This document shows positions 5,290-60,421 of a stretch of DNA of 64,000 nucleotides, piece after piece; within the stretch, counting starts at the first letter, position 1; the number at the start of each line of letters is the position of its first letter. The DNA comes from Bacteroidota bacterium (GTDB taxonomy: Bacteria; Bacteroidota; Bacteroidia; AKYH767-A; 2013-40CM-41-45). A program made the position numbers and the translations under genes. The DNA lies in contig JADKKE010000010.1 of NCBI GenBank assembly GCA_016720655.1, positions 69,042 to 133,041 on the forward strand, written 5' to 3'. The notes below the pieces were generated by a model. The model was not told the DNA's origin, did not search any database, and saw only the letters and a list, made by a program, of their open reading frames with translations.

Positions 5290-5296
5290 GAATTAA

Positions 5297-5352
5297 GAGT
5301 TATGAGTTATGAGTTATGAGTTATGAGTTATGAGTTATGAGTTATGAGTTAA
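5297..5352. repeat. Heptanucleotide tandem repeat (gagttat), about 7.5 copies, preceded by (aagaatt) x2 overlapping the stop codon
   Basis: Perfect tandem copies can be read directly in the sequence. The tract is C-free on the plus strand. Confidence 0.9.
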
Positions 5353-8838: not shown

Positions 8839-8942
8839 ATTTGTTCAAGGTTCAAAGTTCAAGGTTCAAGGTTGTTTTGAGTTGATGAGTTTGAGAGTTA
8901 GGAGTTAGCAACCGTCCCTCGTCCCTCGTCCCCCGTCCCTTC
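8839..8942. repeat. Intergenic short tandem repeats: (ttcaaggt) x4, gag-tt-rich units, and (cgtccc) x3
   Basis: The tandem units are visible directly. The copy at 18405..18500 has different unit numbers. Confidence 0.8.
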
Positions 8943-9874: not shown

Positions 9875-9927
9875 GGGTTTTTATTCGCTCTGCAATTGTT
9901 TTGAAGGAGATGAAGCATGGATGTGAT

Positions 9928-15639: not shown

Positions 15640-16065
15640 TGATTGGGGTTGTGAAATGGCAAACGGATCACCTCGAATCTTGTTCGAGCGCAAAACGCAC
15701 CAATGGTGCAAGTTCGTATTTCACAGTACATTAATTGACTCTTATACCCCTATCCTTATGAACACTTTTATTAACAAAAACGAAGGATTTTACTCTTGAA
15801 ATTAACAAATCGTCACAATCAATGCATCCGATTCCATTCAAAAAAAAATTGCGTACACGAATTTCAATGCGGCTGTCATGTGCTTATTTTCAACCAAACA
15901 AAATCTTTAATTTTTGGTATCCATGCGGATATCGTTAAAAAGAATTGAAAAATTTTTACACAGGAGCAATAAGCAAACACAAATTTGTGATGCACAACAA
16001 AAATGGAGACACACAAAATTCAATGATAATTACCCTTTCAATCGATCACTCGAAAGGATTGAAAA

Positions 16066-18404: not shown

Positions 18405-18500
18405 TTATTTGTTCAAGGTTCAAAGTTCAAGGTTCAAGGTTGTTAGTGGTTTGTGAGTTCGTGGGTTAACGTCCCTCGTCCCCCGTCCCCCGTCCCTTCC
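18405..18500. repeat. Intergenic short tandem repeats (ttcaaggt, gtgrgtt, cgtccc units), a variant of the set at 8839..8942
   Basis: Read directly in the sequence. Confidence 0.8.
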
Positions 18501-19431: not shown

Positions 19432-19522
19432 GGGTTTTTATTTTTCTTGCACTTGATTTATTCATTGATTGGAATAAATCAAAAATATCTTAGTTGAAAA
19501 TTAGTTTTGAAATTAAATTGCT

Positions 19523-33621: not shown

Positions 33622-33700
33622 GTTGTTAGGTTATTGAGTTATTGGGTTATTAAGTTATTAAGTTATTGAGTTATTAAGTTATTGGGCTAAGGTCGGATAA
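33622..33700. repeat. Nonanucleotide tandem repeat (gttattrag/gttattggg), about 8 copies
   Basis: Read directly. It starts immediately after the asnB start codon region and is C-free on the plus strand. Confidence 0.9.
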
Positions 33701-37605: not shown

Positions 37606-37776
37606 CGAATGCTGTATAAAGTATAAAGTATAAAGTATAAGGTTCTGTGTTTTAGAACGCTCGTTGATTGCTTACATGATTTCAATTTATTCATAAATAC
37701 TGTTAGTGTAATGCATAAAATAAATTCCCTCCGACATCCTACCTTATACTTTATACCTTATACCTAATACCTTCAT
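37606..37776. repeat. Inverted pair of heptamer tandem repeats, (gtataaa/g) x4 and its reverse complement, bracketing about 95 bp of the promoter region
   Basis: gtataaagtataaagtataaagtataagg at 37606-37634, and ccttatactttataccttatacctaatacc at 37740-37770. Confidence 0.85.
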
Positions 37777-40933: not shown

Positions 40934-41703
40934 CGTAGAGGATAAGATTAATTGCCTAAAGGCCTGCTTTTTCGCCTGCAAAGGTAATTTTTTCCGCTGC
41001 TTAAGGAAGAAAAACTTATTGACAAAAAGTTATAATATGTTAATCTTAAGTCATTTGCAAAATCCCCTCTGTGCTCTCTGCGTCTTTGCGAGAAATTTTA
41101 TCGCGCAAAGTCGCAAAAGAGCGCAAAGATTTGGAACGAACCGCCGGCATTTCACTCCCGCCCTACCCGTGCTCCGCTCATTCTTCGCTCGCCCGGGGTT
41201 AGAATAATGAGTGTAACGCTCCTTAAAAGGTTCTAGTTTACAGCAGTTCCTTTATATTCTTAAAGATTAAAACCACTAAAATTTATACCCAGAGATAAAT
41301 TAAAAATTTAAATAAATTCCAATTATTTGAAGTGTAGGAAATAATGTATCTTGGTCAGAGGAATTGAAAAAAATACCATCTGTAAGTTTCGTAATCAAAT
41401 TTTTGAATTGTTCTTTCGAAGAAATCGATCAAAACAATAAATTAAATGAACATTAAAATACTTTATCTTTGCAAACTTAGAAGAAAATAAATGAACGTGT
41501 GGTTTCATTCTCATTCTTTCGATTTATATGCAAACAATTGCATAAACCCAACCAAAAACAGAGTATACGCAACGAGTTGCGTAAACATAACCGTTATGCG
41601 CAACTTTAACTCTTTCATAGTATTTTAGTAAAATAAATAAAAACTTAAAATATGGCATTGCAAACAGTTATTCCGTTAAGGCAGGTTCTTTTTCAAGCTT
41701 ACT

Positions 41704-42301: not shown

Positions 42302-42871
42302 ATGGAGGAACTATACAATTTTGTTTACCGCGGTCTGCTCACAGATGAGAGTTTAGATAAGGCTAGGTAGAAAGAACCTTTCAAAGTTTGGAAAGAAGAA
42401 GAACACTCTCTTATGAAGGCTCTATCATTTGAGATGCTCGATGACGACAACATTCAAAAAGCAAGACAAATGTCTATTGTTTATATAGCATTACATTCTT
42501 TTGAAAATTCAGTCCGGAATTAGTTAAGTCTGCAATGGCAGAGAAGTTTCTTGAGACTTGGTGGGAAAAAAAGTTCCTGAGAGAATTAAATCGAAGGTAA
42601 AACAAGACAGGAAGAAGATTCAAAATTCAGGTGGCATGGGAGCAGAGGAACTGAAGAAATAATGTACTGCGATTTCGGAGATTTATCCTCTATCATAGTT
42701 GTAAATTGGGATCTATTTAAAGATATTTTGGCAGACATGGAGTGGACAAAGGCTGTTCTTTCAACTTTAGAAAGATCTCGTAATATAATTATGCATGGCG
42801 GAATTGTAACCCGAGAGGACATGGAAAGAATAGGAATAAATATTAGAGCTTGGGTAAGACAAACGGGATAA
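42302..42871 (+). pseudogene. Swt1-like HEPN domain gene (predicted RNase), broken by three or more frameshifts/stops
   Basis: The reconstructed sequence reads ..LHSFENSVRN / LVKSAMAEKFLETWWEKK / VPERIKSKVKQDRKK... / YCDFGDLSSIIVVNWDLFKDIL...LERSRNIIMHGG. It has the R-x4-H HEPN motif and FGDL..II..NW..F typical of the Swt1-like HEPN family. Confidence 0.55.
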
Positions 42872-43045
42872 AAGCAAGCGAATAACAGCACATTTGCAAT
42901 AGTCTGGCATTCATGCACTGCTGACTATTTGTGGTTTTAAAAAGGTCAGTGCTCCGCATGAACATTTGTGATAAAAAGCCTGCCCATCGCAAATCTGCAA
43001 CCCGTTGGCTCAGTACGAACTAACTACAATACTTAAATTATCCTT

Positions 43046-43958: not shown

Positions 43959-44222
43959 CAGGACCTGGTTGTATTTGATGCCGGAATGCGCATAACATAA
44001 AGATTAAACGCAATATTTTTGGAGTGGGCGGGCTCGCGTAAGCTAGCGCAGGCGTCCGTGATGCTTCGCACTAGTTTACGTCCGCCCTATCCACACTTTG
44101 TAAACTATTCGGTACATTTGAGTGTGTAGTGACTGATCTCCCAAAAATACTCCGTTAATCTATTCTACGTTTGCGCAACTTCTTCGCGACTTAAGAAATT
44201 TCAACATTATTGATAGAACCAA

Positions 44223-45185: not shown

Positions 45186-45420
45186 TTTGCCGCAGTGGAA
45201 GGAGGATATATCTTATGCTAGCTCGGAGCTGCTATTATTTCCCAAATTTATCTATACCCGCCACGCCGGATATGTCCCCAGTTAAAAGTTAACAGCTGTG
45301 AAGGATAAGACCCCAGTTAAAAGTTCGCACCCGCTGCGCAGGATATGACTCCAGTTAAAAGTTCAAAGCTGAGAAGGATGCTAACGCTGCGAAGGATCTC
45401 CAAGCCAAAACTTTTACCTC
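45186..45420. repeat. Island repeat array A: 5-6 tandem degenerate units (gctgYgMaggatatgaccccagttaaaagtt..., about 18-38 bp)
   Basis: Read directly. It ends with the variant gctgcgaaggatctccaagcc. Confidence 0.85.
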
Positions 45421-46446
45421 CACTCGTTTGTCATAATTCGAAAATGTTATGCAGCCAAAGACTGAGATCAACCTTATTTAGTACCAGTTTTACTCAACTG
45501 TAATAGCTGATATCTTAAAGCTGTTGATGGTGGATCCTCGGTGGACATTCATCTTGACCTTTTGTTGTACAGACTATTTAGGAAACCCATTAACAATCAA
45601 TGGAATCAAAATAAAAAATGGGAAAAATGAGTATAAGAAGTTCGTTAGCACCTATCTGACTAAAGTCAACAATAACTACAGGGACTTCATAACCAACTAT
45701 ATGCTATCCGGTGCTCGTTAGTGCATACATATGGTGAGTCTGATGCATCACGGCAAAACAGATTACACCACAACTTATATTTGGGGATCCTATAAGTTAT
45801 CATTTAAGTTTTGATATAAGAGATATCAATCTGGACATTAGCCTTTCGGACTTTATCAGTGAATTAATAGCAGCTATTCATTTGTTTTTTATGAGATTTT
45901 CTGCTATAAATTCAGACTGGTCGCTAAAATTATATTATCCTCAAAACCTAAAAGTATAATTGGAAAGACAATCAATTAAACTAGGAAATCCTATAATTTA
46001 CAAATCAATTCATCCATCTCTGGAAATTCTTGACAAAGATAATGACATAAGTCTTATTTGTAAGTTCATTAAAAATGAAATTGAAGAAGAAATCTATAGA
46101 CATTAAAAATATAAAAGATATCTTGTTACGCAAATTTCGCAACAACAGTGAACGATTGACTCTTGTCATCGTAGAAATAATGAAATCTCAAATCAACCCT
46201 GTGATTTATCAAAACATGAAATCAAAGTTGTAGAAAGTATTAAAAACTAAATTATCAAGTATCAAATGGACATAATTAACCCATACGAGAAAATTTATTT
46301 CGCAAAGTCCATCCTAAAAGGGATAATGTTTTATTATGAACAACTAGATAAAATTAATAAGTCAATTACATTGAAAAGAATTTTCCAATCAAAAGAAAAG
46401 ATGTCCAGTAGCAATTAATTTTCTTAATGCAATTCCTGAAGATGAC

Positions 46447-47313
46447 ATGCTCAACAATTTTTCTCAAAGTCATCCGCAATTGCAATCAGCAATGGAACGG
46501 ATTGATTTTTATTCAAACCTAAGTGTTGCTGAATTATCATATAATGAAATGCATATCATAATATATCTTGACCATTTACTTTTCAGTGCAATAAACATTA
46601 TGTTTTTTAAAGTAAAAATAGAAATTCCAAAAGCCATAAAAGATTTGTCAATAGATGAGAAGATAAAATATTTGATTGAAAATAAATACTACTACCTCCA
46701 AAATGAAAGCCCTTTCGCACGATGTTCATTTCCGCAAGCAGTAGCCTATTGTGATTCAGAAATTGAAAAGTTCAAAGAACTTCGTGCATCAGATTGAAAT
46801 AAATCCGATTACGGCAGAGATAAATAAAATGGTAGAACAATATCTATTTTTGGTTCAAGATAACATACAGGGCAATCAACTTATTTCACCACTTATTGAA
46901 CAAAAGTTTCCAGAGTTTATTGCAAAACTCAAACGAATGCTCTTGGATTCCTAGTTTCTTTGATATTACAGAAGCAGATAAAGAAAGAACATTTCATGTT
47001 TTTGTTCTTGGTGTTTTGCAGGGGAGAATTGAAGGTTACAATATTTCTTCAAATAAGGAATCAGGAGTTGGGCGATACGACATTGCCCTCACTCCAATTG
47101 AATTGAAGAATCCGAGTATTAATTGAAATAAAGAAAAGAGAAAAAGACAAAGCAAATATTGAAAACGAATTGGATGAAGCACTCAATCAGATTGAAAAAA
47201 AACTATATTTTACTGAAATGAGAAATATAGGCGTGCAAACGATTTTAAATGTTGCAATAGTGTTTGAGGGTCTAGAGCCGCATATCAAGTATAATAAATT
47301 TATTCATCACTAA
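46447..47313 (+). pseudogene. C-terminal part of a gene of the AAA-ATPase-like/PD-(D/E)XK (DUF1703-type) family, frameshifted, with the N-terminal ATPase region missing
   Basis: Three overlapping ORFs plus an extension. The motifs are ..FHVFVLGVLQGRIEGYNISSNKESGVGRYDIALTP and, after a frameshift, LIEIKKREKDKAN...LDEALNQIEKKLY, which together give GR.DI...IE.K. Confidence 0.5.
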
Positions 47314-47329
47314 GTAAAAAAGAAATTTC

Positions 47330-47425
47330 TCCAGCTGCGCAGAATATGTCTCGCTCTGCAGGATATGTCCATCTAAAAGCTCACCACTGCGAAGGATGCA
47401 AACCGCTGCGAAGGATATGACCTAT
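47330..47425. repeat. Island repeat array B (4 units, gctgcgcagaatatg.. / ctgcgaaggatgcaaac / cgctgcgaaggatatgacc)
   Basis: Read directly. Confidence 0.85.
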
Positions 47426-47452
47426 TCTGAACAGAATGATGTGTGAAAGCCG

Positions 47453-48061
47453 GTGTGTGAGATCATCCCGAACAAAATAATTATGAAAGAAATAAGTGAC
47501 TATAAACTGATAAGAGATGTTATAGTCATGCAACTTCAGAATTGGATGAAGGAACAAGGAGTTCATTCAAAAACTGAAATTGTTAAACTAATAAGACACA
47601 GATTTGAAAACAGGTATTTAAAACATATAAAATCTGTTGACAGCGGCTTTTTAATCATGGCTGTCTCCTGTTTCGTCATAGAGACATTGCAATCATTTAG
47701 GGAAGGTGTACCTGACACTAATGGAATGGGACCGAGAATGTTTAAGAACTTTTTCAATAATGAACAAGACAATTTCCCTGACTTTAATGAAGGAATATCG
47801 GTTGAATTTTATAAACACATAAGATGCGGAATTCTGCATCAATCAGAAACGACAAATGGCTGGAGAGTGCTTAGAAAAGGCAAACTACTTGACGAAACAG
47901 AATTTTCACTTAACGCAGAACTGTTTCTTGAATCGCTTAACAAAAGCGTGAATAAATATTTAAACGAGTTAGCTAATTCAGACTTCAATTCTAACCTATG
48001 GAAAAATGCATTTATCAAGTTGAAAGATATTTGCGAAAATTGTCACAGAAAAACTGTATGA
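47453..48061 (+). CDS. Hypothetical protein of 202 aa with a possible HEPN-like R-x4-H motif (RCGILH)
   Basis: Clean ORF between two repeat arrays. The motif match is weak. Confidence 0.35.
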   Translation: MCEIIPNKIIMKEISDYKLIRDVIVMQLQNWMKEQGVHSKTEIVKLIRHRFENRYLKHIKSVDSGFLIMAVSCFVIETLQSFREGVPDTNGMGPRMFKNFFNNEQDNFPDFNEGISVEFYKHIRCGILHQSETTNGWRVLRKGKLLDETEFSLNAELFLESLNKSVNKYLNELANSDFNSNLWKNAFIKLKDICENCHRKTV

Positions 48062-48089
48062 TACGAAATGACGATAGCAAGGAGCTGTT

Positions 48090-48205
48090 ATACTTACAGC
48101 TGCAGGAAGGATCTCATGATCCCCACCATCGCTGCGAAGGATCTCCAAGATCCTTTGCTCTTAAATTGTGTGATATTCATCCACTGATCAATGCTTTTCA
48201 GATCT
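48090..48205. repeat. Island repeat array C (2 units) ending in the terminal variant cgctgcgaaggatctccaagatcctttgctcttaaattgtgtgatattca
   Basis: The tail shares about 50 bp with array G at 56700..56745 and contains the palindrome aaggatc-tccaa-gatcctt. Confidence 0.85.
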
Positions 48206-48229
48206 GCTAATGCGTACCGGTTTTTAAAA

Positions 48230-48450
48230 GGGTGAATTACCACGGTGTGCTGTATGTTGTGTGAAAACCCGTGCACAAGGTTATTCCGCCTCTGGAGGCC
48301 GGTAGCTCCCTTTCATGACATCACCTTCAGGTATACTTGGTTCAAAGTGGCTTCGCAAATGGTGGCAATCCATCTCCTCAAGACATCAGATTATCGGTAT
48401 TAATATTTTCCGGGGGAGTTTCATATTTACTTGTTAGCGGCAATTTAGAA
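48230..48450 (+). repeat. Conserved element of about 200 bp, copy 1 (ttgtgtg...cgtgcacaaggttattccgcctctggaggccggtagctccc..tcatgacatcac..tcaggta..ttgg.tcaaagtggcttcg.aaatgg.ggca)
   Basis: About 85% identical to 55570..55790 on the same strand, and it contains a cctc(c/t)ggagg palindrome. It lies upstream of the Abi-alpha-like gene. Confidence 0.75.
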
Positions 48451-48478
48451 AGACACACACAATTTAACGAGATACAAA

Positions 48479-49276
48479 ATGAGCGAACAAAACAAAGAAC
48501 CAAGCGAAAACAAAGTAAGTGAAACAATCAATGCTGTTACAGGGCTTGTGAAAACAGTTCCGGTCTATACTGATACAATTCAACCTGCAGCCAAAGAAAT
48601 TGGAAAGACTCTTGAGACAGTAGCAAAAACAGTTAATGTAGCACTCTTTCCTTTAAAAGCATTAGTTTGGAGTTTTGAAAAACTTCAAATTTTTATTGAC
48701 ACGAAAGTATCTGAAAAATTAAAGAACACTCCTGAAAGTGAAATTAAAACTCCAAATCAAAATATGGTAGTTCCATTTGTGATTATCATGTCTGGTGATG
48801 AACCTGAACTGCAAGAACTCTTCGCGAATTTAATTGCATCTTCAATGGACAATCACACTTCTAATTTTGTTCATCCTAGTTTTGTGGAAACCATAAAACA
48901 ATTAACACCAGATGAAGCAAAAATATTAAGATACATTTCTAAAGAGGCAAATCTTCCTACCACCATTGCAATTCGGAGTGAATCAAGTAATCTGCAAGAA
49001 GGTGGTTGGGATATGTATAGACACGTTTCTCTTTTCGGTGAAAAAGCATTTTGTGTAAACCCTCATTTAACTTCTGTGGCACTTGACAACTTTATAAGAC
49101 TTGGTATTATTGAAATACGTAAAGATTATTCTTATACAGAAAAGAAAATATACTCGGAACTAATGGACGACAAAGAAGTGAAGGAGGTCATAGAAAATAT
49201 TAACAAAACCGAAGGCAGAAAAGTTAGAATCGTTGAAGAAATGGTTATCATTACTGACTTCGGCGCCAATTCATAA
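48479..49276 (+). CDS. Abi-alpha-like (DUF4393) abortive-infection family protein
   Basis: 265 aa. VPFVIIMSGDEPELQELFANLIASSMD...HPSFVETIKQLTPDEAKILRYI resembles the Abi-alpha family as I recall it. It sits in a defence-type island. Confidence 0.45.
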   Translation: MSEQNKEPSENKVSETINAVTGLVKTVPVYTDTIQPAAKEIGKTLETVAKTVNVALFPLKALVWSFEKLQIFIDTKVSEKLKNTPESEIKTPNQNMVVPFVIIMSGDEPELQELFANLIASSMDNHTSNFVHPSFVETIKQLTPDEAKILRYISKEANLPTTIAIRSESSNLQEGGWDMYRHVSLFGEKAFCVNPHLTSVALDNFIRLGIIEIRKDYSYTEKKIYSELMDDKEVKEVIENINKTEGRKVRIVEEMVIITDFGANS

Positions 49277-49309
49277 ACATTTGCGTAACAGACCACATTG
49301 AATACAGAA

Positions 49310-49440
49310 AATAACTGCAGCTAACATCCCCGCTGCGAAGGATAACCTGCCCGTTAAAGTATGCAACCCGCTGCGCAGGATATTACCTCTGTTAAAAGTT
49401 TCCAGCTGCAAGATATGTAATAGCTCGGGGGAAAGTTCTT
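49310..49440. repeat. Island repeat array D (3 units)
   Basis: cgctgcgaaggataacctgcccgttaaagtatgcaac / ccgctgcgcaggatattacctctgttaaaagtttcca / gctgcaagatatg. Confidence 0.85.
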
Positions 49441-50034
49441 GAATTGCCTGTGCGCAAGCTGATCCAACAGCGGAGGTAGGTGGCGATATTAGTATGCAAG
49501 CAAAGGTAATGGCGGAATAAGCAAATACACAATACCGCCCACAACATTTCCAAGCAATGGTTACTGCTTTGTGGCAGATAAGCAATTCGATAGTTTTTAA
49601 TTGTTTTACTAATAATCGACAACAAAAAAGAACAGGAGAAATTATTGTTTAATGCGTATTCAGAACATACCAAAAGTCCTTCTATGGCTTAAAAGGTTAT
49701 GTTTACAGAGTACCTCCACTACTTTTGAATAATGATGGATTAAGAAATTACTTTGTTAGTTGTAATCAAGCTCATGATATCCTAAAGTACTTTGCTTTTT
49801 CGATTGCTTTTCAAGTATTAATCACACTGATTAACAAAATGTTAACTGGATTAATTACAGTGCAGCTTACAAGAATGCTGAAGAAAGAAAGATTTGGGAA
49901 AAGGATGCCGACACCATATCAACTTGGTCTTTAATCGATTTTGTAGTTGAGCATCCTGGCACTTTACTATTTGGTATATCGACATGTATTGTTCGATGTT
50001 TACTTTCCGAAGGCACTGCCACTGTTTTAATACA

Positions 50035-50115
50035 ATTTAAGAAAGTTGAACCCCTGCTACGCAGGATATGACCCCGCTAAAAGTTCAGGCTGCAAAGGAT
50101 CTCATGATCCTTTTC
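50035..50115. repeat. Island repeat array E (2 units, the second being the ggatctcatgatcc variant)
   Basis: Read directly. Confidence 0.8.
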
Positions 50116-50604
50116 CATTCGGTGGTGTGATTTACAATCTACAGTTCTGGGCTTATAAAAGCACTTTTGGTGTCCAATAGTTCAGAAAATCAGGTGTGTT
50201 TACGGTCCTTATCGGAGGAATAAGGCAATCTACTTCGAACAGGGCTTCTTTATCATAGTAATTCCCGGGCGGAGCTGAGTGAACAGCGGCGGAGATGGGA
50301 AATGTGCTTCACTAGAACGGATAAAAGCATGATGCTATGAATATTAGATTTCATGTTTTTCGGTAGGGTGGAAGGTTTTATTGATTAGCTGGAATGGAAT
50401 CAAAATAGTGTCTCCTTACGTTATATTTGATTCAAAGAGAAGCGTTGGCAGGAATATTCTGGCTAATGCAGGCATATACTATCGAAGATCTTATATTATT
50501 GCAATCTGCATTTGTACTCAAAAGAAAATTCTAAGGCGTTCACACTTGCGATATTTTTTTCAGTTTGATTCTACACCACAAATGAAACATCTGGCCTATT
50601 AGGA

Positions 50605-51650
50605 TTGCTTCTTTGTTTCGCTCTTCAGACAAGCGCGCAAATTTTCAGTAAAGAATTTGGCGATATTAATGATACGGTTCAGATATCGGACATCCTTATT
50701 ACAAAAGATTCAAACATTGCCGTCTTTGCACGTTGCGCCCGAAATCCACTTGATGAACTTCTGTTCATCAAATTGGACACTCTGGGGGATACCTTAATGA
50801 CAAAACGATATTCAAATGCTAACAACTTGTTATTGTTTCTGTGGAGCAATCGAAATTTAGACAGTTCATTTTATGTAGTGATGACCAAAACAGATTCTGC
50901 GTTCCCATCGAATCTTGATAAAACGGTCAAATTATATGCCGAAGAGTGTTTATTTTCTGACTGACACAGTAATGGAATTTATGGAAACTCAAATTGGTGA
51001 TCGAGATTCACTTTTGTTCTTTGCAGGAGTGCATATAAAAGTTATTTGTTGAAGATGGACATTCAGGGAAACATTGTCAAGGAGATATTCTTTGGCAGTG
51101 ATGCGTTACACAGTTCCTATAACAGTCCTGAAATAGTGAATTTTATTGTTGATAGAAATCACAATATCATTTGTACGGGAATGGAGGGGGAAGTACATAT
51201 CCCGGAACATTGTTGCAAAGCACCTTCTCGTTAAATTAAATTCAAATGGCGATATTTCGTGGACTTTCTGCAATGCTCTCGCATACGAAGTTTATAACAG
51301 AAGTGGAAGAAAGTTCAGCTGGAGAATATTGGATAATTTCTAAATATTGGTGGATGGGGTCGGAAAGTGCTTCTATAAATATTGTAGATACGAATGGTAC
51401 ATATCTCTGCAGCATATACGGCCCTGGTGATGTCGCGACTACCCACTCCGCTTATTCATTGGCCGACAGCAATCTTGTTTTTACCGGTCGTGTCAATGGT
51501 AACCGGGCTTTCAGAATGGAAGTGAATTCTTCCCGGACGATCATCAATTATAAAATAGGGAATGCGCAGATCGCAACAGAAGCCGTCTTAAACGGAGATC
51601 GAGCAATTTTTGGATCATCGCATACACTCGCTATGGTTGATACACATTAA
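50605..51650 (+). pseudogene. Beta-propeller repeat protein gene, fragmented over four overlapping ORFs
   Basis: A repeated motif of about 50 aa (..DTLGDTLMTKRY.., ..DIQGNIVKEIFFGS.., ..LNSNGDISWTF..) is shared with the minus-strand pseudogenes at 52.4-55.4 kb. A signal-like N-terminus (MLLCFALQTSAQ) is present. Confidence 0.4.
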
Positions 51651-52139
51651 GAGCAATTGCTTCCTGAAGATTCAATAGTCTTAAACCCGACTGTCAACCC
51701 CGGATCTGGGCCGATAATTCGTATTTGGAAATTGTACGGGGACAAATCCAGTTTTTATCAACAAGCACGCCATGGAATTGTTCATCCGGAATCACTATGG
51801 ACAATGGCTGTATTTCTTTAGAACAGAGCAGTTGGAGATGAAGGAGTATTTACTTTTTCCAAATCCCGCAACTGGCAGTTAAATTTCAACAGGAAAACCT
51901 CGCCTTCGGAGCTGTTTTACCTTGTACGACGCACATTCAAATTTGATGGTCAAAGTTTCGAATCCAACCACAAAAAACAATAATATTATTCAACGCCGAT
52001 TATTTTTCATCCGGAATGTATTTTGCCAATTTTGTCACGAGTGTGGAAGCTTGTATTCCGGAAAAGTCATCTTATACATTGAATTAAAGGAAATTTGAGG
52101 CAATACCCGCTCCGCAGATGTGTCTATCTTTTTTTAACC

Positions 52140-52260
52140 ACAGAGGGTCCATGAGATTGTAGATTGTAGAATGCTGATTGTAGATTGTAGATTGTAGATT
52201 GCTGATTGGTGATTTTAAATTGCTGATTGTAGATTTAAGAACTTCTCTGTGCTGCTCGGT
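52140..52260. repeat. Tandem repeat of approximately gattgtagatt / gattgctgatt units, about 9 copies
   Basis: Read directly. It is C-poor on the plus strand. Confidence 0.85.
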
Positions 52261-52403
52261 GTTTAAAAATGCATCCATTTAAAATTAAGCACTTTTAAAA
52301 AAAAATCAAGTCATTCAACATCACTAGGGATGCAGATTCATCAATGGTGTTGATTGAGTTAAGGAAATTTCTACAATCGAAATTAAATAAATGCTTCAGC
52401 CCA

Positions 52404-53758
52404 CTATTCAATCAAGTTTTCTACTCCCATTACCTTCGTTTCCAGAATTGATTTCAAAATGTAAAGTCCTGCTTCCAAATCTCCTTTTTCGATTCTGGTC
52501 CAATGTATTCTCAACTCTTAACATTTTTCTCCTCACCCTTCCTGTCGTGTCATAAAGTGTCAATGAACATTTTAGATTGTTTGGATTTGGGAATAATATC
52601 AGTTACCTTCACCATCTGTTTTAACAAGATAAATATCTTTGACTCCAATAGTTGATGCACCTAAAAAATCAGTATAACCACCAACCAAATATCCTCCGTC
52701 ACTATTTTGAATTACCTGTTGTGCGGCTTCACCACGTGGACTATCCAAAGCTCCAATAATTCTTGACCACAAAACATTTCCCTGTTCATCTGTTTTAAGA
52801 AGGTACATACTCATCGAATCAATAAAATCTTCCTGGGCACCACCTGTAATAATGAATCCACTATCCAAACATTGTTTTATGTATATATCAAACGGCATAT
52901 ACCCACCCGTAGAATCAGAAATTACTTTGTTCCAAAGGACATCCATATTATTATTCAACTTAGTCAAAATAATTTTATATCGTGATGTCCTGCTATAACT
53001 AACACCGGCAACAATTAACCCAGAATCAACTGTATTTGAAACGGATTGAGCAAACATCCTTTCGGAACCACTTAACTGAATAGTTTTATTTTGAAGTAAA
53101 TTTCCATATGAGTCCATCTGTAAACATAAAGTCCGCGTAGAATCCAATGTTCCCCATTCTTCTCACTGTAAAAAGTTCCCCATTTGTTGTTTGAAGAGTT
53201 TGGGATGTTACAACTTTATTGGTCTGATATTTTCTTTGACCATACAATATTTCCGGCGGTATCCATTTCAATAAAAAAGAAGCCATTGGATGTTTGTAAA
53301 TCACCGCTCAGAATAAATGATCCATTGTTCTTTTGAAAAATGGTCCGCGAAGTTAAGCCAATTGGGTCTTGTATTGTCCTTGGTCCAAAGTGTATCACCC
53401 ATATTGTTTGTTCTAATCAACAAAATTTCATTCAATACGCCACAAGTATCACCTGCAATCAGGTAACCTCCATCATTTGTTTGAATCAGTGATTTTCCAA
53501 AGGAATAAGAGTTCATCAAATATGTTTTATTCCAAATAATATTTCCATTTAGATCCATTTTGCATAATAACACACGTGTTGAATCTAATTCATCCATAAA
53601 CCCGGTAAAGGCATAATTACTGTCATTTGTCAAAATTAAATCTAACACAGATTCATAAGATGGACTACCTACAACTCTTTGCCAGAGTTAGTTGAGCGTG
53701 GGCAGTAGTTAAACATTAAACAGCTCCAAAACAATGCAATTTTTAGAATATTCTTCAT
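52404..53758 (-). pseudogene. T9SS cargo gene with beta-propeller repeats and a type-A sorting domain remnant, frameshifted at five or more sites including within the signal peptide
   Basis: Four overlapping minus-strand ORFs (motifs NGNIIWNKTY, GGYLIAGDT, DTLWTKD). The signal peptide is MKNILKIALFWSCLMF. The C-terminus gives ..FPNPNN..SLTLYDTTGRV...AGLYILK..VMGVENLIE when frames are joined. Confidence 0.45.
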
Positions 53759-53954
53759 GGGTCATTGGTTTGTAAATTCAATTAATTGAAAATTGATAGA
53801 TATAAAAACCAGATTCATCTGGAAAATATTTAAAATACTATGACAGCAACTTGATATATTGCTAAATTACAAAATTCTGGTTGTCCTGTTCTTATTTTTG
53901 GTTCCAGCTATTTTTTTTGTAATAATACATCAAAAACTATTTTTATTGCGTCAT

Positions 53955-54015
53955 CTATGTGTAAAGAAATCCCGTTGCGCAAGATATGACCCGCTGCGCA
54001 GGATACAATCGTCCT
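53955..54015. repeat. Island repeat array F (2 units: cccgttgcgcaagatatgacc / cgctgcgcaggatacaatcg)
   Basis: Read directly. Confidence 0.75.
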
Positions 54016-54071
54016 TTATTTTATTGTCGAAAAGGAAAGGGTAGATTGAAGTGTGTCGCGGCGAATTAATT

Positions 54072-55440
54072 TCAATTCATTACTACCAATCGATATATAT
54101 ATTTGGTGGAAGCAAGATTAAAGGAAATTAGATACGTTCCTGCCTGCAGTGAAGTTGGGAGTTCAATAAAAGGAGTAGCTTCCGAATGAATCACCATTGT
54201 AGGAATAATTAGTTTTCCTTGCAAATCATGAAGAGTTACAGATGTAATTTTCTCAGCAGGAATTGAAAAATTGAATCTGCTTCCTGAGCAGACCGGATTC
54301 GGATAAATTTTACTCTTTACAAACGCATCTTCACTGATACCGGCTAAAAGCAGATCTGAAATTCGAATCAGATAGCCTTCAGATCCCGAACCGACCCAAG
54401 CTTTTCCTGCTATATACAATTTATCATTCAGAATTAATGTTTCAGTTGCCTCTAAGGCTGATATACCCAAAGAATAATCTGCCAAGAGGCTGCCCAAAAG
54501 TATCACTCCATATAACTGTGCCTAAACGACCTATCGCGAGATAATTCCTGCATAATTAAGTTGATTTTGACCATTCGAGAACGACGATTGAGGTTCTGCC
54601 CAAATTAAGGAACCGGTTGTATCCACCTTTATCAAAGTTGAGATATTATTAAGTCCCAACAAATAACCATATGGTAATTTACAAATTTCATCCACTTCCG
54701 AATACCACGAACCAATATTATATGTTTGTTGCCATAAAATTAATCCTGTTGTATCAATACAAGTAGTTGGGGTTTTCGATTAGCAAAACAGTATCCGATG
54801 ACATTCCTCCAATAAGAATATTGCCATGGCGATGTTATGATTCCTCCATGATATTGAGTCGGAAATAAATCCGGAAGCCAGTTAATTTGCAATACATTTC
54901 CATCAGTCAGTCTTGATAATAATACAAAGTCATATCCATTTGCAGAACAATAAACATGACCAATAAGGTAGAGGTTGGAATGAATTTCAACGAGTCCGGA
55001 AGGACTAAAAACTGTATCTACCTGTGGTACATATGGAAATTTTGAAATAAAAAATTACCGGTTGAAGTATAAAACATCAGTGAAGGACAATAACTGGAGC
55101 CATACGAAGTTCGAAAAATTAACCATTAAATAATTTCCATTGGACAGCTCCTTGATTATTTGCCCTTCACCAACACTACCTGTTGTATCATCACGTATAA
55201 TCGTTACAATATTCCCGTCCAGGTCTGCTTTAATAGCGAAATATTCGTCAGGACCATTAAGGTACCATGCAGTGCCTGTTAAGAGCAACAAGCTGTCACT
55301 GGTAAGCTCCATATCATTGATGGTTGCATAATGCCGATTCAGAGCGGAAGAATATCCATAGGCAAAATCAACCTGCTGTGAAAATGAAATTTGAAGATCA
55401 AGCAGCATCAGCAAAAGAACGAGAGAAAATAATTTTTCAT
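54072..55440 (-). pseudogene. T9SS cargo gene with an intact type-A sorting domain, frameshifted upstream including in the signal peptide
   Basis: The C-terminal sorting domain reads IYPNPVCSGSRFNFSIPAEKITSVTLHDLQGKLI...AGTYLISFNLASTKYIYRLVVMN. The start MKNYFLSFF.. is out of frame with the 55055..55414 ORF. Confidence 0.5.
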
Positions 55441-55569
55441 GAGTAAACCGGTTGTATTTCTAAAGGGAACAATGAACCCAACCGTTACTGTTGAATGATG
55501 GCCTGTATGTGAGCTCATTCAGAATTGGCAGGGAATCGCTATAAATATAATAAAAAAAACCTTCTGAGC

Positions 55570-55790
55570 GGAATGTTGTGTGCTGGCACGTGCGCACGGT
55601 TATTCCGCCTCCGGAGGTCGATAGCTCCCCTATCATGACATCACTTCAGGTAGATTTGGATCAAAAGTGGCTTCGTAAATGGCGGCACTTCACCTCCTCG
55701 AAACAGCTGTTTTTGGTTTTAAGGATTTTCAGGGAGTTTTGTATATTTACTAGTACTGTGCCACTTTAACGCACCGCTTGAACTAACTGC
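55570..55790 (+). repeat. Conserved element of about 200 bp, copy 2
   Basis: About 85% identity to 48230..48450, with the palindrome cctccggagg. Confidence 0.75.
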
Positions 55791-56114
55791 TATCATATGT
55801 CCAGGTACATTCTCTCTATCCTTTTCTATTTTATCCTAAATTTTTTAGTTTGCTCAAACTCCCGATTCAATTTATTATTTAAGTGCAAAGAATAATATAA
55901 ATGCGGTCATTTCACCACTTCAATTTAAAACTTTTCATAAAGAAACTAAAAAGCATTTAAGACTTTTCCATTATATGATAATTCCAACTGGGATTCTCTC
56001 AATAAAGCTCAGGCCCCTTTTCGACTAAAAGTCAGAACAAATGGACTCAATTTTTTAAATACTCTACGATTTGAATACCCTGCTTCATTTGCCGATTCGG
56101 ATTCCTGTTTAATC

Positions 56115-56501
56115 TTGATGGACTTAAATAAAACCAAACTTTGTCTTTATCTTGAAGAAAATCAAGGTATGCAAGCATACCATCTGGCTGACTATCTGAA
56201 ACCATATATGCTATTTCAACGCTCTGGTTGGGAATGGCAAGAATTTATTTTATATAATCCATCCAATAGATACCTTGTTTCGTTTCCGGATTCACCTGTC
56301 TTTTTAAATGATTCCTTAATTTATGCTCTAGGCAATTATTATGGTGAAGGCGGATTTCAATTTATAAATGTGAACAACAATTCCTTCTTCAGAGTTGATT
56401 TTTCAAATTATGAAATACTTGAATGTTACCAAAGGGAATTTTTCTTTTACTTTACATTATATAATCGAGATTTAAACTCTAATAAATTTATTACAAATTA
56501 A
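56115..56501 (+). CDS. Hypothetical protein of 128 aa
   Basis: ORF downstream of copy 2 of the 200 bp element. Tyr/Asn-rich, no recognised domain. Confidence 0.3.
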   Translation: MMDLNKTKLCLYLEENQGMQAYHLADYLKPYMLFQRSGWEWQEFILYNPSNRYLVSFPDSPVFLNDSLIYALGNYYGEGGFQFINVNNNSFFRVDFSNYEILECYQREFFFYFTLYNRDLNSNKFITN

Positions 56502-56544
56502 CATTCTTCTCCCAAAATTAAACTCCCTTTGAAAATACTCCTTA

Positions 56545-56750
56545 CGCTTTTATAGCAACCCGCTGGAGGGTATGACCCCAGTTAAAAGCTAAAAGCTGCG
56601 AAGGATTCCAAAGATCCGGCCCGCTGCGAAGGATATGACCCTAGTTAAAAGCTCACAGCTGCGAAGGATGCTATCGCTGCGAAGGATCTCCAAGATCCTT
56701 TGCCCTTAAACTGTGTGATATTCAATTGTCTGAACTGTGATTTCGATGAT
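56545..56750. repeat. Island repeat array G (5 units, ending with the long terminal variant)
   Basis: gctggagggtatgaccccagttaaaagctaaaa / gctgcgaaggattccaaagatccggcc / cgctgcgaaggatatgaccctagttaaaagctcaca / gctgcgaaggatgctat / cgctgcgaaggatctccaagatcctttgcccttaaactgtgtgatattca. Confidence 0.9.
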
Positions 56751-56981
56751 TTATATGATTTCACTGATGTGCATCCATACTATTAGCTGGGATTGAAATA
56801 ATTGATTCATGTTCATCATTCCTAAAGAAATTTATTCAACACTGATTTCTCAAAATCAAAATAATCAAAATAATCATCAAAATCATAGTTCAGACAAGGT
56901 GCAGTTCAGACAAAAGTGTTTCATTAAAATCCCCAGCATTTGTTGGTTGTATCCCAAAAATCAATGGTCGAGATTTGGTCC

Positions 56982-57377
56982 ATGATTAAGGAGAAATATA
57001 AACATTCAGATTTAACGGCAAAGATTATCGGATGCGCTTTGGAAGTTCACAAGACTTTGGGAAATGGATTTCAGGAGGTCATCTATCAACGTGCATTGCA
57101 AATTGAAATGGCACAACATGGCCTCGCTTTTCAACGTGAATTCGAAATGCCTGTTTTGTACAAAGGAGAACAAATCGGAACACGAAGGGTTGATTTTCTT
57201 GTGGAAGAAATTATTTCGGTTGAACTCAAAGCACTCACACAATTAGAGCCGGTGCATTTGGCACAAGCTATTAATTACCTCGAAGCATATAATTTGGAAA
57301 TCGGGTTGTTGTTGAATTTTGGTGCAACAAGTATGGAAATTAAAAGATTAACAAATGGGAAATTGCCGGCAATGTGA
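56982..57377 (+). CDS. GxxExxY family protein (PD-(D/E)XK-fold)
   Basis: MIKEKYKHSDLTAKIIGCALEVHKTLGNGFQEVIYQRAL..ELKAL..H.AQAINYLEAYNLEIGLLLNFG has the family motif order. It is flanked by atcaYagttcagacaaRg direct repeats at about 56885-56915 and 57458-57485. Confidence 0.75.
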   Translation: MIKEKYKHSDLTAKIIGCALEVHKTLGNGFQEVIYQRALQIEMAQHGLAFQREFEMPVLYKGEQIGTRRVDFLVEEIISVELKALTQLEPVHLAQAINYLEAYNLEIGLLLNFGATSMEIKRLTNGKLPAM

Positions 57378-57604
57378 AATCTGTCTTAAACGTTTTAATC
57401 TCGTGATTAATTTTAATCTCAGTTGAATCAAACAGCGGCATTCAGTGTAATCACAAAAATCAACATAATCACAGTTCAGACAAAGGAGAATTACGGTAAC
57501 ACATGTCGTCCCTACGGGACTTCACCCCTTGTGTGCGCTTTGCTACCGACATTTCGTCCCAAACGGGACTTACTTGTTGTTCAATAAAACCAAGAGATAC
57601 AACC

Positions 57605-57705
57605 GTATACAATAGAATAAAATCCCGCTGCGCAGGATATAACCCCACTTAAAAATTAATTGCTGCGTAAGATGACGGAAGTTCGGCATCTCCATGCGAA
57701 GGATT
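57605..57705. repeat. Island repeat array H (3 degenerate units), the rightmost array, adjacent to the two-component system
   Basis: cgctgcgcaggatataaccccacttaaaaattaatt / gctgcgtaagatgacgg.. / gcgaaggatttaccac. Confidence 0.75.
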
Positions 57706-57760
57706 TACCACACCGCACAAAAACACTTCGCTTGAAGTGTATTGGTAAGAAAAACATTCC

Positions 57761-58401
57761 TCAAACTATCTTCCCCTTAATCGCCTTCGCCACCGCTTCC
57801 GATTTTGAATGAACCTGCAACTTCTTGTAAATGTTTTTGATGTGACCGTTTACAGTTTCAGGGCTGATGAAACAGGATTCTGCAATTAATTTATAGCTCA
57901 TTCCCTGAACAAGATATTTCACAACTTCTTTCTCCCTGTCTGAAAGGTCAAAATCATTCACTGCTTCTGCTGAGGGTTTATGTTGTACCATCTTCAACAC
58001 TTTTCTGGCTATGCTTGGTGTCATCGGAGAACCGCCTTCATAAACTTCTTTAATCGCGGCAAGCATTTGAACGGGAGGAGTGCTTTTAGAATATAGCCTT
58101 CCGCCCCGTTGCAAATGGATTGAAATATTCTATCGTTGTCATCAAAAATGGTCTCCATCAGGATTTTCACATCCGGAAAATTTTCTTTCGCGATTTTCAC
58201 CGCTTCAATGCCGGATATACCGGGCATTTCAATATCCATAAGAATAACATCAGGGTTTGTTTGCCTGATGTCATTTACAATGTCAGTGCAGTTGGCAAAC
58301 GCTCCGGCACATTCAAATCCCGAACTGCCATTAATAAGCTGGAACAATCCTTCACGTAAACTACGATTATCTTCAAAAATAATTACTCTCAAAGTTTTCA
58401 T
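57761..58401 (-). CDS. NarL/LuxR-type response regulator (receiver domain + HTH), with an apparent frameshift near 58090-58115
   Basis: ORF 58021..58401 is the receiver domain (VIIFEDNRSLREG...ILMDIEMPGISGIEA) and ORF 57761..58114 is the LuxR HTH (LSDREKEVVKYLVQGMSYKLIAESCFISPETV). The two join sensibly as ..AEGYILK / STPPVQMLAAIKEVYEGG. Confidence 0.75.
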
Positions 58402-58528
58402 CTGGCTCTTTAATTTTTTGTTAAAATGGCTGGAAGGAATTATTCACCTGTTTTACTTTTTGTTAATTGTGTTCAAGAACTCCGTTTCGCCATATTCATT
58501 TTTTGGTAAACTTTTGTATAGCGCTATT

Positions 58529-60421
58529 TCATGCTTTAAAAATTAGTTCAAGGTTTGTGCCGCTTCCTTTTTCTGATTCAATTTTCAATTGCGCTTTCAT
58601 TTCTTCCGCGCGGTTTTTCATATTGAGCAAGCCGTTACCCTTTGATGTCTGAGCAACATCAAATCCGACTCCATTATCCCGGATTGCCAGTTTTATTAAT
58701 CCGTTTTCATTTGTCAGGGTGATGGATGCGCGTGTGGCTTGCGAATACTTTACAAGATTGTTGAGCGCTTCTTTAAAAATCAGGTAAAAATTTCTTCTCG
58801 ATTCCAGAGAAAGTTTTAACTCATTTAAATTTTCATCTGCCTGAAATGTGTGTTCAATATTTTTTGCCTTTAGCAAGTTGTACGCAAGCGTACCCATGCG
58901 TGAAATGATATTTTCAAATGTGTCATTCTTCGGATTAATCGTCCAGACAATATCACTCATCACTTCAATTATTTTTCTTGAAGCATCTCCAATCTGTTCC
59001 AGTTCATCAACCACAGCCGGAGATTTTTGTTTGGCCACTTCGCTGTAAACCGAAATACTGTTTAAGGTTGAGCCGACATCATCGTGAAGGTCGCTTGCAA
59101 TTCTGTTCCGGATGTTTTGCAGCTTCAATTTATTCGCTATCCTGAAATTGTTATAAACAAAAAATGAAAGGATCAACAACAAAGCGAGACCACCAATGAA
59201 ATAATTCTTTATCAGTTTTTGTTTTTTGATTTCTACATCTGCCACAGCCAGTTGTTTTTCGTTCTCGGCTTTTGTTGCGACTTCTTTTTTATCAAACTCG
59301 TAATTCATTTCCAATTGAGTTTGCTTTTTTACCTTCTCTTCGTTGTTGATGCTGTCCCTGGCAGCTATGTATTGTATATGATATTCATAAGCTTTTTTCC
59401 AGTCGCCCTTTTTAGAATAGAGTTCACTAAAATAATTATTATCATCTTTAATTAAATCCAACGCTTTAATTTCTGTTGCAAGTTTTAATGCACTGTCCAG
59501 ATATTTATCTGCTTCTGATAATTTATTTTGTTTAATATAAAGCGAGCCAATGTTGCCCAGAGTTGTTGCTATGCAGTATTTATCTTCTTGTTCTTGAGCT
59601 ATTTTCAATGTCCTGAAAGCATAGTCAAGAGCTTTTGGATAGTCGGCTTGCTCACCATAGACAATCCCGATGTTGCCGAGGATCATGGTAATATAATTTT
59701 TTGCTCCAAATTCTTCATCCATCTTCAGAGCCCTGAAATAATAGTCGAGTGCTTTGGGATAGTCGGCTTGTTTCATATAGATAACCCCGATGTTGCAAAG
59801 TGTGGAAGCAATTAAATTATTTAATCCCAATTCTTCTTTCATTTTCAGTGCCTTGAAATAATAGTCAAGGGATTTGGCATAGTCCCCTTGCACATCATAT
59901 ACAACCCCAATGTTGCCGAGAATTCCTGCGATTTTATTTTTATCCCCAATTTCTTCTGCAATTTTCAATGCCGTCAAATAATAGCTCACCGCTTTCGAAA
60001 AATCAGCTTGCATTTGATAAACGCTTCCGATGCGCCCAAGTGTTGTTGCTTTTCCTCTCTTGTCATTTAATTGGTCCCACAAGGCAATAGCTTTGTTGTA
60101 ATGTTCAAGAGCAAAACTGAATTCTCCTTTCAGAAAATTGAACCAACCCAATTGATTATATGAATTTGCAATGCCTTTTTTCCATTGATTTTTTTCTGCA
60201 AGCTGCAATGCTTGTGTGCTAAGCAAGATAGAAGTGTCGGGGTTGATGTTCATCAATTCCCAGCCGATCGCGTTGAGGTGATTTACTTTGTTCGTATCCT
60301 CCTTTGCCGTTTTCAAAACATTCAGCAGCGAATCAATCTTCTGTTGATTCTGCGCCTGAACAGAATTAAATAAAACTCCACACAGGAATAAAAGGGAAAT
60401 CAGACGGAGAAAATATTTCAT
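58529..60421 (-). CDS. Sensor histidine kinase with extracytoplasmic TPR repeats, one TM segment, and HisKA_3 + HATPase domains
   Basis: Signal peptide, about 7 TPR units (..AIALWDQLNDKRGKATTLGRIGSVY..), TM segment YFIGGLALLLILSFFVY, phosphoacceptor region ASDLHDDVGSTL, and ATPase motifs (DNGVGFD, GNGLLNM). Confidence 0.85.
   Translation of the reverse strand: MKYFLRLISLLFLCGVLFNSVQAQNQQKIDSLLNVLKTAKEDTNKVNHLNAIGWELMNINPDTSILLSTQALQLAEKNQWKKGIANSYNQLGWFNFLKGEFSFALEHYNKAIALWDQLNDKRGKATTLGRIGSVYQMQADFSKAVSYYLTALKIAEEIGDKNKIAGILGNIGVVYDVQGDYAKSLDYYFKALKMKEELGLNNLIASTLCNIGVIYMKQADYPKALDYYFRALKMDEEFGAKNYITMILGNIGIVYGEQADYPKALDYAFRTLKIAQEQEDKYCIATTLGNIGSLYIKQNKLSEADKYLDSALKLATEIKALDLIKDDNNYFSELYSKKGDWKKAYEYHIQYIAARDSINNEEKVKKQTQLEMNYEFDKKEVATKAENEKQLAVADVEIKKQKLIKNYFIGGLALLLILSFFVYNNFRIANKLKLQNIRNRIASDLHDDVGSTLNSISVYSEVAKQKSPAVVDELEQIGDASRKIIEVMSDIVWTINPKNDTFENIISRMGTLAYNLLKAKNIEHTFQADENLNELKLSLESRRNFYLIFKEALNNLVKYSQATRASITLTNENGLIKLAIRDNGVGFDVAQTSKGNGLLNMKNRAEEMKAQLKIESEKGSGTNLELIFKA

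Follow-up and report, generated by a model that had tools for sequence, protein, structure and literature searches.

We analysed 64,000 nucleotides of contig JADKKE010000010.1 from a Bacteroidota bacterium (GenBank assembly GCA_016720655.1; positions 69,042–133,041 of the forward strand, hereafter the window), which carry a family of short repeats between the genes of an accessory island. The repeat zone falls within a low-GC region, with carB (38117–40981, minus strand) to its left and, to its right, a gene pair (57761–60421, minus strand) that encodes a LuxR-type response regulator and a TPR/HisKA_3 kinase; type IX secretion system (T9SS) domains among the open reading frames (ORFs) of the window place the organism in Bacteroidota. 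The repeats are considered here in relation to repetitive extragenic palindromic (REP) sequences and the REP-associated tyrosine transposases (RAYTs), and all coordinates refer to the window.

With at most one mismatch, the repeat core GCTGCGAAGGAT occurs 16 times (0.22 expected in the window), always on the plus strand and between 45295 and 57638. A search for CGCTGCGMAGGAT with at most two mismatches gave 23 matches, where about 1.3 are expected and none of 100 shuffled sequences attained 23; 21 of them are on the plus strand and confined to 45294–57704, and the other two are inside carB and chance-like. An annotation made earlier from the sequence of the window (the initial annotation) had described such units at eight or more intergenic sites. 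The 21 units, all on the plus strand, in fact form nine intergenic groups, A–I (approximately 45257–45405, 47331–47431, 48097–48185, 49329–49425, 50053–50143, 52107–52129, 53971–54015, 56557–56726 and 57624–57706). The long and short forms that it distinguished are both genuine: a long unit (35–38 nt) consists of a foot, a left arm and ATGACCCCAGTTAAAAGYT, and a short unit (18 nt) of the foot, the left arm and GCTAWC. Units abut with periods of 17–38 nt or have 0.6–4 kb of genes between them. Tandem Repeats Finder reported array A alone, with periods of 35 and 38.

The full element is approximately 55 nt in length and is composed of a 5′ foot (CGCT), hairpin 1, a spacer and hairpin 2. Hairpin 1 (9–10 bp) has the form GCGAAGGAT(C)-loop-(G)ATCCTTYGC, the spacer between the hairpins (about 10 nt) reads YCTTAAAYT, and hairpin 2 (6–7 bp) is generally GTGGATT..AATCCAC, with GTG(T)GAT-loop-ATCCAC in the window species. 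The core GCTGCGAAGGAT is therefore the foot together with the left arm of hairpin 1. Complete elements account for three of the approximately 21 units in the window (48130, 50088 and 56675); the other 18 or so are 5′ derivatives that have no right arm. Truncated units always stop just past GGAT, at the start of the hairpin 1 loop, and three alternative tails part ways within the loop of hairpin 2. The composite order long, short, complete, tail is seen again at many loci, and truncated tandem units are also present in other genomes, with periods of 17, 44 and 46 nt. A stretch of approximately 52 nt that is common to two arrays (48128–48179 and 56673–56724) is 96% identical; the initial annotation had recognized it as a shared tail of about 50 bp but had placed it some 27 nt too far to the right, and the perfect 7 bp inverted repeat assigned to it is instead one of 10 bp that includes a G·T pair (GCGAAGGATC/GATCCTTTGC). 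Loop length in hairpin 1 ranges from 4 to 9 nt and the loop sequence is free, which suits a folded hairpin and not a recombinase core site with a fixed spacer. The idea that the hairpin loops mimic tRNA anticodon arms was dropped in view of the same range of loop lengths.

An alignment was made of 38 diverse copies from many Bacteroidota, collected with a regular expression that carried no requirement for complementarity. Both stems covary: 93.7% of cells are paired, compared with approximately 42% when the partners are slid, and changes on both sides occur at seven of the 15 pairs, values that were attained by none of 500 shuffles. A covariance model (R1) built from this alignment, the seed of which includes the array C copy, detects complete elements at three positions of the window (48130, 56675 and 50088), all on the plus strand and all in the island, and nothing significant elsewhere in the window. 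The whole window gave no Rfam match at gathering thresholds, and the region 40.9–58 kb in E-value mode gave chance-level matches only; a full-text literature search for the repeat sequence returned coincidental primer matches only.

The arrays differ in their content. Array A (45257–45405) comprises three long units and a short one, together with a hairpin-type left arm that lacks its right arm, and folds at chance level (z = 0.45). Array B (47331–47431) holds four degenerate units in the order long, long, short and long-type. In array C (48097–48238) a weak hairpin unit (48099–48129) is followed by a complete two-hairpin REP (48130–48185; hairpin 1 at 48134–48158 and hairpin 2 at 48168–48184), which folds and scores 60.8 bits with R1 (E = 2e-13, as a seed member), and then by tail type 1 up to 48238. 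Array D (49329–49425) has two long units and one degenerate unit, and array E (50053–50143) one long unit and a complete REP (50088–50143) that folds and scores 25.6 bits (E = 1.5e-4). Array F (52107–52129) is a single degenerate unit (CCCGCTCCGCAG..), and array G (53971–54015) consists of two units between two minus-strand T9SS genes. Array H (56557–56775) runs through a long unit, a weak hairpin, a long unit, a short unit and a complete hairpin 1 (56675–56703) into tail type 2, with divergence inside the hairpin 2 loop (40.5 bits, E = 2.7e-8). Array I (57624–57706), with one long and two degenerate units, adjoins the terminator of the response-regulator gene and forms the right edge of the island. 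All nine arrays are on the plus strand. The left part of the island (41–45.2 kb; DUF5343, HEPN-like and small genes) is free of the family.

A pattern scan of one genome per species gave 55 loci, approximately 45 of which were irrelevant coding repeats in high-GC organisms. The core was found in several metagenome-assembled genomes (MAGs) of Bacteroidota (Fluviicola, Crocinitomix and other Bacteroidia), always as the left half of the hairpin GCTGCGAAGGAT-loop-ATCCTTYGC. In two of these loci (L007 and L017) the hairpin is directly upstream of a gene of 193–197 amino acids. The encoded proteins match Pfam Y1_Tnp and pass the NCBIfam model for RAYTs (NF047646; 96.6 and 94.7 bits, cutoff 80), and the RAYTs of this group fail the IS200 model NF033573 (22.7–27.9 bits, with 27.9 and 23.1 for L007 and L017; cutoff 55). 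An HUH motif (NHIH or SHLH) and YIHxNP are present in the RAYT proteins; that of L007 has NHIH, WQ and YIHNNP, and its locus has subterminal hairpins on one strand at both ends. TnpA_REP subclass 2.6, which is mostly from Bacteroidetes, has the motifs NH[LIV]H, WQ and YIH[QN]NP and is described as 'flanked by atypical secondary structures', in which GT[AG]G is missing (Quentin et al., 2018; PMC6006769). The shared motifs and the lack of GT[AG]G liken the present family to subclass 2.6 (Bertels group 5) as it is described in that publication. The initial annotation did not recognize the repeat as a described element; it represents part of a REP-type hairpin (its foot and left arm) that occurs at the flanks of RAYT genes, a class already noted by Quentin et al. 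(2018). A profile of the clade searched against solved structures matched E. coli TnpA_REP best (4ER8; E = 0.0011).

The link between hairpin and gene extends to metagenomes. A scan for the hairpin gave 80 loci with a total of 530 kb. At least 11 contigs contain RAYT genes or fragments, and in eight the distance to the hairpin is no more than about 200 bp. As a RAYT normally occurs about once per genome, its presence at this rate is not attributable to chance. REP copies flank the RAYT in L007, L017, L073, L094, L108, L123, L145 and L155, and those of a sister subfamily do so in L147. The five copies in L155 are all no further than 1.1 kb from the RAYT gene, and the other 18 kb, which carries housekeeping genes, has none. 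Inverted pairs of REPs were seen only around RAYT genes (L017, L147 and L155). The array C tail is homologous to sequence in L027, L080 and L133; in L080 this tail type separates the hairpin from a fragment of a RAYT gene, so that array C corresponds to the left end of a REPtron, the unit formed by a RAYT gene and its flanking REPs.

Two RAYTs bear directly on the window species. The first, P0063 (197 amino acids; 92.8 bits with NF047646), is intact and is encoded in the conspecific genome GCA_016718015.1, on the 1.93-Mb contig of strain locus L057, approximately 70 kb from the island; a search of the PDB with this single sequence gave no match. Its gene has three flanking copies of CGCT-TCGACGGAT-ATGC-ATCCGTTGT-CCTTTAACTGTGTGATGTTTATCCAC, of which one is direct and two are inverted. 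The foot, spacer, tail and hairpin 2 of these copies are in common with the island element, and hairpin 1 differs by a compensatory A–T to C–G change; on the basis of the common architecture and this change, the P0063 REPs represent a sister subfamily. The second is a C-terminal remnant of about the last 35 codons inside the island (50180–50300, minus strand; E = 6e-6 in the window by tblastn against the L017 RAYT). In the Illumina-assembled strains the remnant is a single frame, LSSARNYYDKEALLEVDCLIPPIRTVNTPDFLN, and the L059 and L061 copies are 61% identical to the L017 RAYT over 33 amino acids (E = 1e-8). Its 3′ end faces the array E hairpin, as at the right end of the L017 RAYT unit. The remnant is 72% identical to P0003, 62.5% to L017 and 49% to the resident P0063. 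Its greater closeness to RAYTs whose own REPs bear the GCGAAGGAT arm than to P0063 indicates that the island holds the wreck of a second REP/RAYT pair.

A further Y1_Tnp gene, approximately 5 kb past the right end of the window (L057:1019–1510; also in L058, L059 and L063), was considered as the cognate enzyme and rejected. It is IS200-like (subclass 1.2; DHLH and YIQNQKEHH, 60.3 bits with NF033573), and its flanking hairpins in L057 (GGCCCTTTAGGGCC and GCCCCTTTAGGGGC) are GC-rich and unrelated; strain L056 has no gene call there.

Among the genes between the arrays, one encodes a protein of 202 amino acids (47453–48061, plus strand) that belongs to no Pfam or PADLOC family and could be HEPN-like, judging from an RX4H motif (RCGILH) in its sequence. 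It is followed by an Abi_alpha gene (48479–49276, plus strand; Pfam E = 1e-46; PADLOC candidate PDC-S47, E = 1e-52), two genes for T9SS-secreted proteins (52599–55440, minus strand; 457–528 amino acids and intact in related strains), a gene of 241 amino acids in the strains (55800–56501, plus strand) and a PDDEXK_3 (GxxExxY) gene (56940–57377, plus strand; Pfam E = 1.5e-39). The initial annotation had called the genes defence-type, which stands for Abi_alpha and for a HEPN-like fragment that matches PDC-M34B but lies outside the repeat zone (42662–42871). It does not extend to the T9SS-secreted cassettes, nor to the PDDEXK_3 and 202-amino-acid proteins, which, like the HEAT_2 protein described below and the 241-amino-acid protein, gave no PADLOC match. 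The PDDEXK_3 gene is flanked by 36-nt direct repeats (TAATCAAAATAATCATCAAAATCATAGTTCAGACAA, 86% identical) at 56862–56897 and 57448–57483, and the strain loci have a further paralogue of segment 57387–57623 close to the right end of the window.

A second kind of shared intergenic sequence, a module of 190 nt, precedes some of these genes. Its two plus-strand copies in the window, upstream of the Abi_alpha gene (48246–48434) and of the 241-amino-acid gene (55565–55754), are 74–80% identical, and the module is multicopy in L056–L065 and also present in L120 and L128, with the invariant end TTTTCCGGGAGTTTTGTATATTTAC. The genes downstream of it (Abi_alpha, 241 amino acids, HEAT_2, cNMP_binding, GAF and 190 amino acids) are mutually unrelated, and the module is possibly a portable promoter or leader. 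A structured RNA was rejected for it (RNAalifold −11.9 kcal/mol, zero covariation), and as a RAYT coding remnant its translations were unconvincing.

The initial annotation had also taken several genes to be decayed. Comparison with Illumina-assembled strains (L059, L061 and L063) reveals 79 short gaps in 3.8 kb (48.8–52.6 kb) and 28 in 9 kb (52.6–61.6 kb), nearly all of 1–2 bp. These indels break the response regulator (57761–58401), the two T9SS genes and others, and the response-regulator and secreted-protein genes are intact in the Illumina strains. Most of the decay is therefore consensus error, probably from long-read assembly of a strain-mixed region; the core genes at 1–41 kb keep long ORFs.

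To assess how the island varies, the window was compared with ten strain loci (L056–L065), which are the contigs that encode the window kinase protein with identical residues. Three of them (L059, L061 and L063) are colinear with the window. Another three (L060, L062 and L064) have a HEAT_2 gene in place of the 241-amino-acid gene, with breakpoints at 55749, immediately past the invariant end of the second 190-nt module (..GTTTTGTATATTTA), and at 56704, where the array H hairpin has its 3′ foot. In the remaining four (L056, L057, L058 and L065) the PDDEXK_3 gene is absent and 4.5 kb (52106–56620) are swapped for other genes; here the breakpoints are at the start of array F, where homology breaks at 52105/52106, and inside arrays H and I. 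Homology common to all strains begins at 57695, within the last unit of array I. The block 50089–52105, the left edge of which is array E, recurs in the metagenome contig L120 beside another left neighbour, and the junction (50088/50089, L120 against L061) is exactly at the REP foot. In the strain islands, nearly all units are on a single strand. The variation at repeat boundaries that the initial annotation had set as a test is therefore present, in that blocks differ at the arrays across the ten strains, but it is ambiguous as to mechanism.

Taken together, these data suggest, with a probability that we put at about 0.78, that the repeats are a Bacteroidota REP-type family tied to RAYT transposases, with one-directional arrays that surround a decayed RAYT gene within a strain-variable island. 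RAYTs (TnpA_REP) are HUH/Y1 enzymes, and REPs serve as their DNA partners. By analogy with the biochemistry of IS200/IS605 and of E. coli TnpA_REP, we infer that the RAYT would recognize the folded hairpin and foot on single-stranded DNA, cut and rejoin, and would in this way have seeded local copies around its gene, the remnant of which is now in the middle of the island. Repeated insertion beside or into existing copies, or replication slippage, could then have produced the head-to-tail arrays. The arrays, together with other shared intergenic modules, would act as islands of homology between unrelated accessory genes, from which it would follow that strains differ by gene-sized blocks ending at arrays. 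This expectation is partly borne out by the strain loci, and the block differences fit recombination at the repeats as the cause of the mosaic. The initial annotation had regarded a ubiquitous REP- or MITE-like (miniature inverted-repeat transposable element) repeat unrelated to cassette boundaries as the outcome that would overturn its view. The family is indeed REP-type, but its copies are clustered in the sampled sequence and coincide with block boundaries.

The family resembles known REP/BIME (bacterial interspersed mosaic element) systems in its short extragenic hairpin with a conserved 5′ foot, in the direct and inverted copies that flank a single-copy Y1/HUH transposase gene, in subfamilies that co-vary with their RAYT, and in clusters and tandem reiterations. 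It differs in the CGCT foot and the two hairpins, in arrays that are strictly head to tail on one strand and mostly made of 5′ half-units without the right arm, and in the clustering of the sampled copies near RAYT genes and accessory islands as opposed to a spread over the genome. REPINs of Pseudomonas and E. coli are likewise non-autonomous, RAYT-dependent and extragenic, with several families per genome that each have their own RAYT; their mobile unit, however, is an inverted doublet, whereas direct repeats make up the island arrays. IS200/IS605 elements and the non-autonomous palindrome-associated transposable elements (PATEs) share the Y1 HUH transposase and, in L007, the one-strand subterminal hairpins at both ends, and their strand-specific single-strand chemistry could account for the single orientation of the island units. 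Against this likeness, the present RAYTs pass the REP model and not the IS200 model, tnpB is absent, unrelated cargo genes lie between the hairpins and no defined pair of left and right ends is evident.

Several observations weigh against the assignment to a REP/RAYT family. Folding, which the initial annotation proposed as a check, separates the complete elements, which fold, from the half-units, which fold no better than shuffled sequence; most units are not palindromes, and the origin of the half-units is left unexplained by a REP/RAYT origin. The units in the window are all on one strand and do not form inverted REPIN/BIME pairs, and the foot is CGCT in place of the classical GT[AG]G. No intact cognate RAYT is present in the window, and the resident intact RAYT has REPs of another subfamily, so that the island copies may be fossils. 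A high genome-wide copy number would be expected of REPs (often more than 100 per genome for classical ones), yet no island-type copies were found in the approximately 51 kb of the window outside the island, in the approximately 12.7 kb right-hand flank of the strain loci or in L147 away from the RAYT gene; within the approximately 100 kb of this species that were sampled, copies occur only in the island and the RAYT neighbourhood. To our knowledge there is no enzymology on this RAYT clade.

If correct, the assignment bears on the function of RAYTs and the spread of REPs, both of which are open questions on which almost all work has been carried out in Proteobacteria. It gives the 'atypical secondary structures' of Bacteroidetes RAYTs a concrete, covariation-backed anatomy (a CGCT foot and two hairpins) and a model that can be searched for genome-wide. 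Within a single species, one REP subfamily has an intact RAYT and a second has only a remnant, which offers a natural experiment on REP/RAYT co-evolution and decay. As REP arrays stand exactly where the differences between close activated-sludge strains involve single accessory or defence genes, the idea that REPs shuffle genes becomes directly testable. A false lead, that of a new CRISPR-like or integron-like system, is removed.

The variation between strains could alternatively reflect a REP/RAYT cassette exchange on single-stranded DNA, which we consider unlikely. Blocks from a REP foot to the next REP loop would be excised and pasted into other REPs, so that accessory and defence genes are assembled and shuffled at the locus, and the short and long units would be half-REP scars. 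The block differences among ten strains with an identical kinase (presence or absence of PDDEXK_3, the exchange of the 241-amino-acid and HEAT_2 genes and the 4.5-kb replacement) are in line with this, as are junctions that fall at a REP foot (50088/50089), at position 56704 (the 3′ foot of hairpin 1) and just ahead of an array (52105). The truncation of units right past GGAT, the divergence of the three tails in the hairpin 2 loop and the RAYT remnant in the middle of the island also agree with it, and a strand-specific single-strand mechanism predicts one strand for all island units. However, homology ends at the edges of shared modules under any mechanism, so a breakpoint at a repeat is no evidence of site-specific cutting, and one breakpoint (55749) is at the end of the 190-nt module and not at a REP. 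The long, short and tail variants are conserved across loci, which points to a few old events that were copied and not to many independent insertions. An intact cognate RAYT is missing from the island, and neither excision nor circle junctions were observed. Such an exchange, if real, would amount to a counterpart of the integron based on an HUH transposase, would build strain-specific defence and accessory islands in Bacteroidota, and would give RAYTs a function.

It is improbable that the arrays serve mainly a host function, whether termination or insulation, protection of mRNA 3′ ends, or binding of a regulator or nucleoid protein. E. coli REP/BIME elements bind integration host factor, gyrase and DNA polymerase I, and the iterated foot-plus-arm units resemble protein-binding sites. 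Six arrays in the window begin 18–100 bp past the stop codon of a plus-strand gene, and the G·T pair of hairpin 1 reads as G·U solely on plus-strand RNA. Stabilization of mRNA and termination of transcription are known for REPs elsewhere (PMC6006769). An intrinsic terminator, however, needs a T-run and co-orientation with the upstream gene, and the hairpin has neither: it is followed by YCTTAAAYTGTG and no T-run, and among the metagenome loci, where 97 of 99 copies are extragenic (outside ORFs), the 97 are oriented almost at random with respect to the gene upstream (50 same, 39 opposite). A dedicated terminator array, one of the possibilities raised in the initial annotation, is not supported by these results. 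Minus-strand genes can also have an array at the 5′ end, as with array G, and the tight linkage to RAYT genes argues for a mobile-element origin, to which any host role would be secondary.

That the repeats are double-strand sites (attC-like or Xer/dif-like) for a tyrosine or serine recombinase encoded elsewhere is very improbable: a cassette-array-like architecture and inverted arms of 9–10 bp around a short spacer recall such sites, but the scanned window ORFs and the Pfam calls of the ten strain loci contain no integrase or recombinase, a loop of 4–9 nt with free sequence is unlike a crossover region, the compensatory changes keep pairing and not sequence, and GTTRRRY/RYYYAAC cores are absent.

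The recombinase that the initial annotation suggested looking for nearby was found neither among the scanned window ORFs (outside the island those of 110 amino acids or more, and with the exception of several large ones), which contain no integrase-type, tyrosine or serine recombinase, nor among the gene calls of the ten strain loci, whose precomputed Pfam calls hold no Phage_integrase-type match. Integrons, including sedentary chromosomal ones with defence genes, are similar in their small accessory or defence genes, structured repeats of one orientation, strain-variable cassettes and single-strand hairpins as the likely active form. The window differs in that it has no intI, attI, R′′/R′ cores or extrahelical bases and has regular stems of 9–10 bp; individual genes tend to come with a 5′ module of their own, and the linked enzyme is an HUH/Y1 transposase and not a tyrosine recombinase. 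The earlier statement that integron attC sites do not fit the repeats agrees with this, as no attC-like sites were found. Xer/dif-type sites need a fixed central region, in contrast to the variable loop of hairpin 1. CRISPR arrays are comparable in their clustered, short and partly palindromic direct repeats, but the present units are adjacent or whole genes apart, without the regular unique spacers whose absence had already been noted, and the annotated neighbourhood has no cas gene. The repeats are therefore not a CRISPR array, an integron or double-strand recombinase sites.

Other repeats in the window were also recorded. The GC-richer intergenic segments in the left part of the island (41050–41210, 42880–43010 and 43960–44200) include a repeat of 9 nt, GCGCAAAGA, and 41058–41134 forms a long imperfect palindrome; GC skew is noisy across the island. 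Intergenic tandem arrays with units of 7–8 nt are located at 5278–5351, 8843–8940, 18411–18496, 33622–33684, 37614–37640, 37740–37773 and 52154–52235, with the units GTTATGA (10.6 copies), GTTCAAG, CGTCCCT/C, GTTATTGA, GTATAAA, TACCTTA and AGATTGT (11.7 copies). A related MAG (L027) has long GGTTGTT-type arrays that adjoin REP arrays. Heptamer arrays lie beside two alike gene sets on the minus strand (8945–15711 and 18502–23392), each with an ORF of 309 amino acids adjacent to one of approximately 1300; the 309-amino-acid ORF of the first set is PorP/SprF, and SprB-repeat ORFs are close by. Coding tandem repeats unrelated to the REPs are found at 59601–59984 (120 nt, in the TPR region of the kinase) and at 62821–63620 (150/300 nt, in the RCC1 repeats of a 488-amino-acid protein).

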